In this document: positions 2,118 to 21,415 of the stretch, one piece after another
How the letters are laid out: each line of letters begins with the position of its first letter
How positions within the stretch are numbered: the stretch's first letter is position 1
The notes under the pieces: model-generated
The model's input: only the letters and a program-made list of their open reading frames with translations
What the model was told of the DNA's origin: nothing
Database searches by the model: none
Source: a bacterium
GTDB taxonomy: Bacteria; UBA8248
Assembly (NCBI GenBank): GCA_965213685.1
Contig: CBDBZY010000061.1
Coordinates: 1-40,192 of the forward strand
Reading direction: 5' to 3'
DNA length: 40,192 nucleotides
Translations under genes and position numbers: made by a program

Positions 2118-5100
2118 ATGTTCTGTGCAGTCTGGACGGTGAGAAGAACTCTCGCCTTTTTGGCGTACGTAGCGTTGCTTTTCAGAGCATCCAGCGGTAA
2201 GTCATCAGCCTCGCGATGTTCAGTCGCTCAGCGACTATTTCTACATAATGTATGTGCTTGTTTCGTGTGTGGTTTACGTTTGTACTACACTATGCATAAT
2301 CAACCTATTTTCCAAGTGCCGCCAATTATTCTCTACACTGTATCTATCCATTCAGGCGCACTGGACCTCCTGTTGCCAGGTTACGACAGCATCCCCACCG
2401 ACGGGAGCGGACTAATACTCATAACGGACATCGGAACATCCCCAAGCGGGGCGCACGAGGACGGGGATGCGTTGATATGTCGTCACAACATAACCAACAC
2501 GCCAGGGCTGGGGGACTGGTACTACAATGGCACAGAGGAAGCGGACGTGGTGGACGGCACTGACCACGTCCTCGGCTGGAAGAGGAACAGGGGACAGGCG
2601 GAGGGCGTGGTGCGGCTGAGGAGTCTCAGCGACACGCCTCAGCGAGGCGACTCCGTGGAGGGCGTGTACAGCTGTGTGGTGCAGAGAGGCGTGGACGTTG
2701 ACGTGGTGTCCGTGGGACTGTACTACAATAGTAAGTGCACTACGTGGGTCGTCGCACTAGCGCACTGCAAATGTACATACCAGCCATAGTCTATTACTAA
2801 CCCACGCGCATAAATATGCAGGGAACTAGAGTAATAATTTTTTTTACTGGTACTTTTTGATATGAAATTTTGAGCCCTACTAGAGCTGGCCCAGAGATTG
2901 CTATAGCTAGTGGACATTGACATAATGAGTGGGTATGGTTTATGAGTGGAACTAAAGTGTAGAGGCTATAGTTAAATTTCTCAGTTGACCACTGTCTCAG
3001 TGGCGTGCAGTAAGCTGCAACATAACTCTCATTCATTATTTCTCTGCACAGCTTAATAGTTAGTTGTAATGAACAGAATCATATTATACCTACACATACA
3101 TTATTGCATAGTTGTAACTTAACAGTCAGCGTTTAGTGTTCTGTAGTGAGTTGAAACACTATCCAACCACACTGCATTAGCTGACACACGACTCTCTGTT
3201 TAGTCTCAGCCCTCGAGATCCTGTTCCAGCTCACATCTCCGCTGACTCAGCAGTACAGTGTGACCTGCAGGTCAACCAATGGGACGGTCCTGAACAGCTC
3301 CTTCATTGGCCCAGCAGAGGAGGGCCTCGGGGAGCTGAGGCCTCTGGAGCTGGAGGAGCTCATGAGAGGGAGAGACAACTACTCCATCACTGCCAACAGA
3401 ACTGGAGGGACTGATGGAGACACGTACCACTGCATGGTATGGAATGGAGTGTCCAGTCTAACAGCCAACCTCACCCTCTCAGGTATGTATTGATATGTGA
3501 CTTAATTCTATAATTTGGTTTAATAATCATTTTGGACAGCGCAGGATTAAGTAAGTAGGAAGTTGACTGAATAGTCCACGACCACTGGCAGTACATAAGG
3601 AAGAATGGGGAGACGTATTTTTGTCTGGGGTGGTGGCTTGGTGCTCAGTGCACTGGACTCCCAGTCACTGGGCCCAGGTTTAGTGCCTGGGACAATAGTT
3701 TGTCTTCTTTCTCTGCCTGTGTCAACTATCACCAGACGGCCATGCCAATTAGCAAATGTTTTGCTATGTATTAGTTTAAACATGTCCCAATGCTCGTACA
3801 GTGATAGGGCTGTAGTACTGTAATGATTACATCACCCGGTCCACTGGTCTGCACCACTCCAGTATGAGCTGTTTGCTTGCTCTGGTGGCTGCTCTCCTGA
3901 GCCACAGGGTAACTGAGGAATGTCCCACTTGTGTTGGGAGCACAGTTACACAGAGAAGGACAGGAGACATGCATGTCCCGTTTCATGTTTCCCTACTGAA
4001 AGTGAGACTACAGGAAAGACCAGTCTCGCATGGCCCTCCATTACAGAACACTCAGTATAACATAATAACACCAAGAGCATAATGAGCTGTACCATTCCTT
4101 ACCTTCCCTTGCCCCTCCTTCCCCTACTATTCCTTCGTTCTGTCAATTTTCTATCCCCCTCTGCCCTCCCTTCCTCCCTCCCTCCCCCTCTTCTTTCCTC
4201 CTCTCTCCTGCCTCCCTCCCTCCCTCCCTCTTTCCTTTCCACCCTCCCCTCCTCCCTCCCTCCCTCCCTCCCTCTTTCCTTTCCACCCTCCCTCCCTCCC
4301 TCTTTCCTTTCCACCCTCCTTCCCTCCCTCCCTCCCTCCCTCCCTCTCTCTCCCTCCCTCCCTCCCTCCCTCCCTCCCTCTCTCTCCCTCCCTCCCTCCC
4401 TCCCTCCCCCCCAGTTGCCGACCCTCCCACAGACATCACCATAGAGCAGCTCACCTCCTCCACAGTCAATGTCAGTTGGGCCAGCCCAACTGGAGGAGCC
4501 GCAGTGACTGGCTACATAGTCCACTACACAGGAGGTGGCCATACGGGCACTGTGTCCTCCGAATACAGTACCTCAGTGCTGGTCCATGGCCTGGTGCCTG
4601 ATGGCCGCAACTACACCATTGCAGTGGAGGCACAGTCTGTGCATGTGTCTGGCGTGTCTGTGGCAGCCTTTATTGAGCCGTGTGAGTGGGGAGTGGTGTA
4701 GGGTGTGTGTGTGTGTGTGTGTGCACACGTGCGTGCGTGCGTGTGTGCGTACATGTGTGTGTGTGTGTGTGTGTGTGTGTGTGTGTGTGTGTGTGTGTGT
4801 GTGACATGCCACAGTATTTTACTGTTAAAGGTCCCACTCTGTTTACTGTAACTCAAAACCAGTTTCGTTCTGTGGCTCAATAACAACTAACCGTCTCGTG
4901 TTATGCCACCATTTCTCACGCACTACGCACTGTCATGTGATCACCATATCAAGATAGGTATTTCCTGTATCAGTCCATACTATGTACACATGGTCAGTCA
5001 GTTAATCAGTAGTTGTTTTTAATACATCAGAATGTCTATAAATAGTAACCACAAGCTTGCTAATCTCATTAATACCTTCATTCTCCCACAGGTATTGTCC

Positions 5101-20400: not shown

Positions 20401-21415
20401 ACTGTTCCAGCTGCTTGTTGGTGGAGTTGGGAACTGTTCAGAGTGGATAGTAAGGCCACATGTTGACTCCCTCCTCCTGTCTCCCCTCCTCTTTCTCTCT
20501 CTTCCCTTGAGATCAATTCCTTCTCTATATACCAATTTCTCCTCCCCCTTCTCCCCCACTCCCTCTCCCTCTCTCTCTCCTTTTGCCCCCCCTCCCCTCC
20601 CCTCCCCCCTACCCACAGACCAACGGTCACACCACGAAGCTCTCTGACATAAGCGACGAGGTCACCCAGCTCCTACAGACTCAGTGCAGCTGCGTCCCTC
20701 GAGTACAGGAGGCGGAGTTCTACTGCTTCCCTGACGCTGAACAGTACGTCACCTTCCGTGGCCAACTGCACGCTCCTCTCACTGTGCGTGTGGACACACT
20801 GCTGACCCACCTGGAGGACTGGGTCAGAGGGGGGGCTTCAATTAGGGTGAGCGAGTACAAGACCATCGATGCAGACTGTGAGCCAGCCATAGCCACAGTG
20901 GAGGACATGGAGTGTGAGGCCCCTACACAGCCACCACCACCACTGCCAAGCGAGCAGACTACCGAGGATACGAAGTGTGAGTGTCCAGTGCAACCGACAC
21001 AGCCGTGTGAGGAGACACCCCAGACATCCCCCCCTCCCACCGAGGGGGTGTGTGAAGATGGAGGAATTGGAATATCTGTAGCGATACTGAGTGGGGAAGC
21101 AGTGGCTAGTTTCATTGTGGGCTTTCTTAAGGCTGTGCTGCTGATAAACTGCTGCAAGGCCATCCTACGCTGGTGAGGAATTGATGACAGATGGTTCTTT
21201 GTGTTGACATGACTATGATCTTTCTGTTTGCCTCTTCCCCTTCTCCTTTCTTCTCCCTCTCTTTTTTCCCTCCCTCCCTCCCTCCCTCCCTTCCATCTCC
21301 TCCTTCCCTCCCTTCCTTCTGTCACTCCCTCCCTCCCACCTTTGTTTGTAGCCGAAGAAAGTACAAGTACAAAAAAGGTTCCGGGACACATGTATCTAAC
21401 CCATATGCCGTTTAA
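17454..21415 (+). CDS. Receptor copy 3: same ectodomain, charged TM (Glu, Lys), ~20-aa tail; exon 6 frameshifted
   Basis: Exons 17454-17532, 17697-18071, 18482-18760, 18860-19126, 19498-19770, 20014-20275 (262 nt vs 273 in paralogs, giving a stop at 20247-20249), 20397-20449, 20619-21172, 21352-21415. TM ISVAILSGEAVASFIVGFLKAVLLINCC; tail RRKYKYKKGSGTHVSNPYAV*. Confidence 0.75.
18185..18248. mobile_element. 64-bp near-perfect palindrome inserted in intron 2 of copy 3 (MITE remnant or footprint)
   Basis: ctatag-tcatggatagtaagcc..acggaa-cca-ttccgt..ggcttactatccatg..ctatag. Copy 2 has the empty site (ttctgttagtttagtgaatctg). Confidence 0.6.

Follow-up and report, generated by a model that had tools for sequence, protein, structure and literature searches.

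The 40,192-nt window analysed here, which is the whole of contig CBDBZY010000061.1 (C61) of assembly GCA_965213685.1, carries a tandem cluster of three genes predicted to encode type I membrane receptors of an animal-like eukaryotic host, whose DNA was binned with that of a bacterium. All three lie on the forward strand with nine exons each, every intron is of the GT-AG type, and the cluster extends from a start codon at 2118 to a stop codon at 21415. Conservation between the copies begins and ends precisely at AG and GT dinucleotides, and the blocks so delimited, when joined, are the nine exons, of which exons 2-6 are in phase 1-1. An initial annotation of this DNA had proposed three tandem 9-exon genes of this kind, and the models bear it out, with copies 1 and 2 open over their full length. 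The reading that we favour, and to which we give about an even chance of being right, is that of a paired-receptor-like trio, in which a single shared binding module is kept uniform by gene conversion and coupled to three maintained, differing membrane and cytoplasmic modules. The gene models are as follows:

2118-9705, + strand: copy 1 gene, 915 aa, open frame, introns GT-AG.

2118-2196, 2356-2730, 3204-3482, 4415-4681, 5092-5364, 6216-6488, 8114-8166, 8302-8777 and 9033-9705, + strand: exons of copy 1.

10561-15883, + strand: copy 2 gene, 825 aa, open frame, introns GT-AG; its allele on contig C16 (see below) is also intact.

10561-10651, 11092-11466, 11737-12015, 12462-12728, 13048-13320, 13755-14027, 14603-14655, 14861-15336 and 15493-15883, + strand: exons of copy 2.

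17454-21415, + strand: copy 3 gene, all splice sites canonical, open only without exon 6.

17454-17532, 17697-18071, 18482-18760, 18860-19126, 19498-19770, 20014-20275 (broken), 20397-20449, 20619-21172 and 21352-21415, + strand: exons of copy 3.

The architecture read from these models is a signal peptide, two domains with a Cys pair, three fibronectin type III (FN3) domains, a small exon, a SEA-like juxtamembrane domain, a transmembrane segment and a cytoplasmic tail. Support for the splice model of copy 1 comes from P0009, a 397-aa relative whose sole contig is 1498 nt long, so that its gene is intron-free: the spliced copy 1 product aligns with it without gaps across the 6/7, 7/8 and 8/9 junctions (31% identity over 308 aa, E 4e-40), an alignment that speaks to the splicing of copy 1 and not to the expression of the trio.

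The assembly from which the window derives (7.97 Mb in 71 contigs) is filed as a prokaryote species representative, with a completeness of 94% and a marker contamination of 3.7%. Most of its contigs have a G+C content of 63-69%, and about 15, among them the window and the 527-kb contig C16, one of 42-54%. Among 44 genomes of the bacterium's order, the juxtamembrane domain of the receptors occurs solely in this assembly, and genomes of the same genus measure 2.9-4.6 Mb against the 7.97 Mb seen here; hence about 4 Mb of the bacterial bin is foreign, intron-bearing eukaryotic DNA. The contigs of eukaryotic type are C61, C2, C7, C16, C18, C41, C51, C53, C56 and C64, and the host DNA within the assembly, some 4-5 Mb, is a fraction of the host genome. 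As to the identity of this host, Cnidaria are named by two Atlas rows (0.87 and 0.86, both under the 0.9 line), and a mitochondrial contig sought among the host contigs was not found, the candidate C53 being nuclear.

The entire window is collinear with C16:170679-130050 on the opposite strand, at 92-98.4% identity that includes introns and spacers, and C16 carries all three receptor genes in the same order and with the same introns. Short-read evidence was taken from Logan contigs of four runs (X1-X4, one study, three samples), placed on positions 17100-21500 only. In these contigs two versions of 21037-21252 coexist, at depths of 61 and 39 in X1 and of 60 and 64 in X3. Because the window is collinear with C16 and both versions occur at comparable depth within one sample, C61 is the second haplotype (haplotig) of C16 in a heterozygous diploid, and not a separate locus. 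The comparison of the two contigs places the heterozygosity of the host genome at 1.6-5%, and provides an allelic yardstick for the divergence between the three copies.

The central observation is that divergence between the copies is partitioned by exon. The features concerned are these:

2356-5364, + strand: homogenised block of copy 1, exons 2-5 (two Cys-pair domains, FN3-1, FN3-2); copy 2 has its equivalent at 11092-13320 and copy 3 at 17697-19770.

6216-6488, + strand: exon 6 (FN3-3) of copy 1, near-identical between copies only in its last ~100 nt.

Exons 2-5 are 97.8% identical between copies at the nucleotide level: paralogues differ at 23-30 sites in 1194 nt, exon 2 accounting for 10-23 of the differences and exons 3, 4 and 5 for 2-5 apiece; per exon, a range of 2-17 is also recorded between the three copies. 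Their synonymous divergence (dS, Nei-Gojobori) is 0.031-0.044 in all 12 paralogue comparisons, next to 0.031 between the two alleles of copy 3, and the ratio of nonsynonymous to synonymous divergence (dN/dS) is 0.27-0.66. Exon 6 is less homogenised (84-87% nucleotide identity, dS 0.21-0.43), so that the earlier description of the ectodomains as almost identical holds for exons 2-5 and fails for exon 6. Further downstream, dS between paralogues is 0.17-0.59 in the juxtamembrane part; in the stalk and transmembrane part copies 1 and 2 lie 0.07-0.10 apart, and copy 3 lies 1.2-1.8 from either of these, and the tails of copies 1 and 2 are separated by a dS of 1.1-1.25.

The introns between the homogenised exons tell of a much greater age. 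Paralogous introns differ in length by up to 13-fold (intron 6, 1625 versus 121 nt; intron 3, 932, 446 and 99 nt) and give only patchy blastn matches of 75-100% identity, as against 89-100% identity for allelic introns, 23 of 24 of which were matched. When sequences are anchored at the splice sites, an identity of 0.978 in the exons gives way to 0.80 and 0.65 over the 20 intron bases nearest the exon and to 0.56 and 0.46 at 21-60 nt (shuffled, 0.53 and 0.34); at 61-120 nt it is 0.43 upstream and 0.32 downstream, against shuffled values of 0.43 and 0.28. Exchange between loci has also left its mark in the pattern of polymorphism. The 1194 nt contain 50 variable sites: 22 are fixed differences between loci, reproduced in both haplotypes, 20 vary in a single allele, and at the other 8 a polymorphism is common to more than one locus, mostly with copy 3 alleles that match copy 1 or copy 2; the four-gamete test is failed by 65 of 435 pairs of informative sites. 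Since exon dS is close to allelic dS, the introns cannot be aligned, tail dS exceeds 1 and polymorphisms are shared, the sequences indicate that the duplications are old and that the distal ectodomain exons have been homogenised one by one, on the time scale of allelic coalescence. A continuing inter-locus gene conversion, with tracts that end at exon borders, would thus keep four exons of the distal ectodomain near-identical. With this part of the protein held uniform across three genes, the three products most likely see the same ligand.

A cluster of near-identical exons, located on a haplotig in a contaminated bacterial bin and with its exon k-mers collapsed in short-read contigs, invites the suspicion that the tandem copies, or the identity of their exons, stem from haplotype mis-assembly or from repeat polishing in a metagenome assembly. 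We consider this very improbable, and an assembly artefact is largely excluded. The three copies stand on one contig with differing introns, and their order and introns recur independently on C16, which rules out the origin of the tandem copies from haplotypes that had been raised as a concern at the outset. The 22 locus-specific differences, being present in both haplotypes, are equally at odds with such an artefact, and polishing cannot raise an identity of ~80% to 98%. In addition, word depth in the short-read contigs is 3-5 times higher in exon bins than in intron bins, as expected if the exon words truly occur in all copies.

At the level of domains, exons 4, 5 and 6 each encode an FN3 domain (Pfam fn3, 54, 26.5 and 36.5 bits; cut-off 25). 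The arrangement first suggested for the ectodomain, Ig-Ig-FN3-FN3 (Ig, immunoglobulin), therefore has to be amended to three FN3 domains rather than two, and the Ig status of its two N-terminal domains is unconfirmed by profile or fold. The paired Cys residues are 64 residues apart in exon 2 and 55 apart in exon 3. Exon 2 contains C-x13-W and ExGxYxC, which we take to be a signature of V-type Ig domains; it has no Pfam match, and none of the 8 members of its alignment matches any Ig family. Exon 3 reaches 12.1 bits with the Pfam I-set model, below the cut-off of 23.7. Searches of PDB sequences with the N-terminal domains returned nothing better than E 0.08, an AlphaFold2 (AF2) model of the exon 2 domain built on the 8-sequence alignment has a predicted local distance difference test score (pLDDT) of 39, and hhalign gives a probability of 0.5% for the match between the exon 2 and exon 3 profiles. 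The short exon 7 (53 nt) encodes the conserved peptide FQLxxGGVGxCSEW.

Exon 8 encodes a domain of about 110 aa with four conserved Cys residues, followed by the stalk and the transmembrane segment:

8302-8634, + strand: juxtamembrane Cys-containing alpha/beta domain of copy 1; the equivalents start at 14861 in copy 2 and 20619 in copy 3.

This domain corresponds to no Pfam family and has no match to Pfam SEA. Its AF2 model, based on 61 sequences, displays an alpha-beta-beta-alpha core with mean pLDDT of 88-95 in 10-residue blocks over residues 11-70. Superpositions by VIA on a MUC16-like SEA domain (Z 6.4; root-mean-square deviation 2.6 over 77 residues), the TMPRSS SEA domain (Z 5.8) and PCDH15 MAD12 (Z 5.5) all lie below the caution line of Z 8, and Foldseek found no PDB match for the model at E<=0.001. 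Atlas likewise offers a mucin-16-like SEA domain (0.82). We treat the model's likeness to SEA and MAD domains as a lead, on which the juxtamembrane domain may be called SEA-like; it differs from SEA domains in that the G/SVVV cleavage motif is not seen at the equivalent position.

The juxtamembrane exon defines a wider family. A HMMER search of 1.84 billion representatives retrieved 269 proteins at E<=0.001, 21 of them at <=1e-10, mostly exon-sized open reading frames (ORFs) of 120-280 aa with ~30% identity. Despite this low overall identity, the closest relatives share with copies 1 and 2 the transmembrane pattern LxGVAxGxFxVGV...CYxIKK, and two longer relatives, P0004 and P0009, have tails with YETx and NPMY, as in copy 1. 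The host contigs bear two more members. One, with 43-47% amino acid identity to the trio, lies at about C16:124373-118379 (minus strand), 5.7 kb past the end of the window, and combines two N-terminal domains and at least five FN3 exons with a juxtamembrane domain whose exon lacks a transmembrane segment; the other is a juxtamembrane-plus-transmembrane exon at C64:462170-462863. A homologous-protein search among longer proteins found none with exon 8 and, with P0009, P0009 alone; a search for related loci in genome contigs and metagenome contigs found none. Orthology to a named adhesion or guidance family, the second concern raised at the outset, was not found.

The membrane and cytoplasmic parts of copies 1 and 2 follow the family pattern:

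8674-8769, + strand: uncharged transmembrane segment of copy 1, GVSVVVLGGVAAGSFVLGMAAMLVLLALCYMI; that of copy 2 is the same save for one substitution.

9033-9705, + strand: long tail of copy 1, with NPMY, YETL, NPVY, YVYV and RPQLPPPRN.

15493-15883, + strand: long tail of copy 2.

The pattern LxGVAxGxFxVGV of the uncharged segment is conserved across the family. The tails comprise about 226 and 132 aa, close to the lengths first given, with nine Tyr residues each. The tail of copy 1 contains two NPxY motifs and that of copy 2 one; each has three YxxΦ motifs, and RPQLPPPRN is common to both. A motif scan recovered the Tyr motifs listed earlier (NPxY as NPMY and NPVY, YETL/YDSV, YVYV/YGYV). 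In the same two tails it found neither an exact PxxPx[RK] nor [RK]xxPxxP, so that the alleged PxxPxR ligand for SH3 domains reduces to the proline stretch RPQLPPPRN. It also found no inhibitory tyrosine-based motif of immunoreceptors (ITIM, [SIVL]xYxx[IVL]), switch motif (ITSM, TxYxx[VI]) or activation motif (ITAM), which leaves the label of inhibitory-like receptors without basis. The divergence of the two tails (dN/dS 0.28-0.31) suggests that they are under purifying selection. This ratio at saturated dS, and the fact that YETx and NPMY reappear in distant relatives, argue that the motifs are in use; NPxY and YxxΦ would then serve as docking sites for PTB and SH2 adaptors and in endocytosis. 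The copy 1 tail also includes a 27-nt repeat at 9330-9460 (4.9 copies, 95% match by TRF) that encodes (TTTFQPPSS)x5 and is missing from copy 2.

Copy 3 departs from this pattern in its stalk, its transmembrane segment and its tail:

20014-20275, + strand: exon 6 of copy 3, frameshifted and 262 nt long (C16 allele, 267 nt).

20949-21074, + strand: stalk of copy 3, with an insert unique to this copy and four extra Cys residues (KCEC, QPC, GVC) in both alleles.

21075-21158, + strand: transmembrane segment of copy 3, SVAILSGEAVASFIVGFLKAVLLINCCK, with Glu (21096-21098) and, 11 residues on, Lys (21129-21131).

21352-21415, + strand: exon 9 of copy 3, with the codons of the short tail (C)RRKYKYKKGSGTHVSNPYAV and the stop codon, 64 nt identical in both alleles.

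The charged transmembrane segment and the short tail had been noted before, and both stand: the tail measures about 21 aa and is without docking motif, and charges are present in both alleles, with Asp replacing Glu on C16 and Lys retained. The segment is the most hydrophobic 21-residue stretch of the product of exons 8-9 (mean Kyte-Doolittle value 2.02 in the window, 1.90 on C16). A transmembrane-like segment is present in 139 of the 150 best family matches, and in none of these 139 does its core hold an acidic and basic pair; a charged residue falls in the best transmembrane window of 10 family matches, and on inspection these proved to be window-end residues or strands that do not span the membrane. 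Since no such pair is seen in the family, the charged segment of copy 3 is, on the sequences compared, a derived state. It would allow copy 3, with its Cys-rich stalk, to signal or be regulated through a membrane partner; alternatively, copy 3 might act as a tail-less competitor of copies 1 and 2.

The window version of copy 3 exon 6 has lost 4 nt after 20150 and 1 nt in a G run at 20194-20195 relative to C16. When all nine exons are read, the frame runs into stops; when exon 6 is omitted, the frame is kept and the product has 647 aa. The C16 allele has an intact 9-exon frame of 737 aa with its splice sites kept. The 4-nt loss is no error of C61, because contigs of X2, X3 and X4 also span 20150 without these nucleotides; one X1 contig carries ACCA there. 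The 1-nt indel is supported by the two assemblies alone and was not seen in the short-read contig tables. Copy 3 is thus polymorphic, with an intact allele and a broken one, the latter probably acting as a null or exon-skipping allele. The suspicion that copy 3 is decaying, which had also been voiced at the outset, applies to exon 6 of the window allele and is countered by the intact C16 allele. In the third intron of copy 3 (18761-18859), the 99-nt version of the window, 93 nt long in the other haplotype, is open in frame, and its retention would separate domain 2 from FN3-1 by 33 additional residues rich in Pro, Ser and Leu.

Several points weigh against reading the trio as a paired-receptor-like system. 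All three genes are predictions from DNA sequence, and the comparison covers two haplotypes. Neither profile matches nor a structure model bear out an Ig fold for the presumed ligand-binding domains, the C..W..ExGxYxC signatures being what remains in its favour. Canonical motifs give no sign of signalling of opposite sign, given the lack of ITIM, ITSM and ITAM in the long tails. A transmembrane partner with complementary charges is not known for copy 3, and no search for one was made. Finally, the stalk and transmembrane part of copy 3 has an allelic dN/dS of 0.98 (12 nonsynonymous and 4 synonymous differences), which, with the frameshifted exon, is compatible with relaxed constraint on this copy.

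Type I receptors that are rich in FN3 domains and have NPxY tails are frequent among adhesion molecules. The three genes might accordingly be ordinary adhesion or guidance paralogues of the Ig superfamily/FN3 kind, copy 3 a decaying duplicate, and the identity of the exons a by-product of conversion without function. Such an interpretation, which we regard as possible though doubtful, would accommodate the lesion in exon 6, with its 4-nt loss confirmed by short-read contigs, as well as the allelic dN/dS near unity and the tails devoid of ITIM and ITAM. It is more difficult to reconcile with the intact 737-aa product of the other haplotype, with the conservation between alleles of the acidic and basic transmembrane residues, the four stalk Cys residues and the tail, and with the failure to find orthology to any named adhesion family. 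Moreover, neither allele of copy 3 has a stop in the 94 codons specific to it, at a dS of 1.2-1.8 from the other copies; in a neutral simulation (20,000 trials, indels ignored) a stretch of this length stayed free of stops in 4.6% of trials at 1.0 substitutions per site and in 2.2% at 1.5.

A further alternative is an allorecognition locus akin to Hydractinia Alr or Botryllus fuhc/fester, with polymorphic ectodomains that bind homophilically between individuals. Clustered, heterozygous receptors with Ig-like signatures, FN3 domains and tyrosine-motif tails would suit it, as would the 5 nonsynonymous and 0 synonymous differences between the alleles of copy 1 exon 2 and the near-equal proportions of nonsynonymous and synonymous differences (pN ~ pS) between copy 1 and the other copies. 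The general plan is also that of Alr proteins, which in the account of PMC9546547 consist of Ig domains, an Fn3-like spacer and tails with ITAM or ITIM. The allelic differences in domain 1, however, amount to 5 of 124 residues in each of copies 1 and 3 and to 0 in copy 2, and those in the next three domains to 0-3 residues each, which is ordinary at a heterozygosity of 1.6-5%. Inter-locus homogenisation works against allele-specific recognition, and the tails of the trio have neither ITAM nor ITIM. We therefore consider such a locus improbable, and the earlier suggestion of self/non-self recognition, in the sense of an Alr-type allodeterminant, is not sustained.

Returning to the paired-receptor-like trio, the analogy drawn in the initial annotation is strengthened by two features not noted there, the exon-by-exon homogenisation of the distal ectodomain between unalignable introns and the ancient divergence of transmembrane segments and tails (dS >1), and fails with regard to inhibitory and activating motifs. 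In this reading the shared module would be read out through the differing tails of copies 1 and 2, beneath the uncharged transmembrane segment of the family, and through the charged membrane module of copy 3. A more specific and, in our judgment, rather unlikely extension is that a holobiont host, not a vertebrate and possibly not a bilaterian, evolved a paired-receptor system of its own, with which it would choose whether to take up or to tolerate microbes. The uniform module would be wired to two endocytic or phagocytic NPxY/YxxΦ tails and to a partner-dependent, disulfide-capable module with a charged transmembrane segment, whose gene would be held as a presence/null polymorphism.

The surroundings of the cluster include further genes and repeats. 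On C16, a tandem array of about 200 kb (178675-375530, +) consists of single-exon genes that combine a GBP-like GTPase with FN3 (Pfam GBP 132 bits, GBP_C 39.5, fn3 38.2). Of its 41 ORF pieces, 23 reach a length of 700 aa or more, the others being fragments, and the array starts about 8 kb beyond C16 position 170,679, which corresponds to the first bases of the window, and about 10 kb from the receptor cluster. This array is an innate-immunity-type expansion adjoining the receptors, and should the holobiont extension prove true, the two together would be an innate-immunity gene neighbourhood. Between copies 2 and 3, (CTA)x106 at 16436-16752 is followed 175 nt on by (GTA)x56 at 16928-17094, its reverse complement, so that a long hairpin or cruciform is possible; the match to C16 is inverted there. 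Two long ORFs on the minus strand (28832-29551 and 30551-31990) resemble permuted papain-like amidases (Peptidase_C92), with a weak Pfam score of 17.4 bits and Atlas values of 0.91-0.92 to bacterial and phage/viral clusters only; the second contains a MGNWTSK start that fits an N-myristoylation-type N-terminus. Other host contigs encode a 2454-aa URGCP-like GTPase ORF (C56:36826-44187), a 1623-aa TPR-plus-CHAT protein ORF (C51:55078-59946) and, at C18:246917-250948, a retrotransposon pol that comprises domains for reverse transcriptase, RNase H and integrase.

Paired receptors, in which one ectodomain serves opposite or differing outputs, are considered an immune device of vertebrates that took shape under pressure from pathogens, and invertebrate parallels are few, namely fester and uncle fester of Botryllus and the Alr genes with ITAM or ITIM. 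A non-vertebrate cluster with both halves of the signature, that is, exon-restricted conversion of the binding part and an ancient, maintained divergence of transmembrane segments and tails, would argue for a convergent origin of paired-receptor logic wherever one ligand needs several readings. The locus offers testable material for this idea: three ectodomains expected to share a ligand, a naturally occurring null allele, and a charged transmembrane segment from which a partner is predicted. Apart from this, it is a record of a bacterial species-representative genome in which about 4 Mb of the DNA comes from a eukaryotic host.

The closest counterpart to the pattern of conversion is seen in the CEACAM paired receptors of Xenopus (ceacam301/303 and others). 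In the portion of the report that deals with them (PMC5112662), conversion of the N-domain exon is described as "exactly restricted to the exon", with no, or nearly no, synonymous differences and with diverged flanking introns. Common to both systems, as far as that account goes, are clustered type I receptors, exon-limited conversion of the exons that bind ligand and differing signalling ends; gene conversion of the ectodomain is similarly reported, in the relevant part of PMC5701461, for Siglec-11/16. In the trio the pattern spans four consecutive exons in three genes. The differences from CEACAM are that no homology has been shown, that the tails are without ITIM, ITSM or ITAM, that all genes have the same orientation and that the host is not a vertebrate; moreover, the short-tail member has a charged transmembrane segment instead of an ITAM-like tail.

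With the KIR, LILR, SIRP and Siglec pairs of vertebrates the trio shares the combination of long-tail members and a short-tail member with a charged transmembrane segment on one common ectodomain. Activating-type members of these families are often polymorphic for null alleles (SIGLEC16P, the KIR2DS4 deletion), to which the frameshifted allele of copy 3 may be compared. Such vertebrate members typically have a single basic transmembrane residue that pairs with Asp in DAP12 or FcRγ. Copy 3, in contrast, has both an acidic and a basic residue and no known adaptor, and the trio further differs in having no ITIM and in its FN3-rich ectodomain with a SEA-like module. For the tails of copies 1 and 2, a plausible model by analogy is provided by the engulfment receptors CED-1, Draper and MEGF10, whose tails combine NPxY, a site for PTB adaptors, with motifs of the YxxL type. 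Their ectodomains, made of EGF repeats, are unrelated to those of the trio, in which ITAM spacing is not seen.

Among invertebrates, no paired receptors of sponges are described in the literature searched, including the portion covered of a 2025 review of the Ig superfamily (PMC11999971). Going by the description in PMC9546547, the Alr family of Hydractinia resembles the trio: clustered invertebrate genes encode type I receptors in which Ig-type domains at the N-terminus (in the trio, domains with Ig-like signatures) are joined to an Fn3-like part close to the membrane and to tails with tyrosine motifs. By that same description, and compared at this level rather than by sequence, the two differ in that Alr domains lack the canonical Cys pair, which the domains of the trio possess, and in that Alr tails contain ITAM or ITIM and those of the trio do not. 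Finally, Alr1 and Alr2 are presented in the summary of 10.1101/2022.03.25.485889 as highly polymorphic allodeterminants, whereas the receptors described here have two near-identical alleles.

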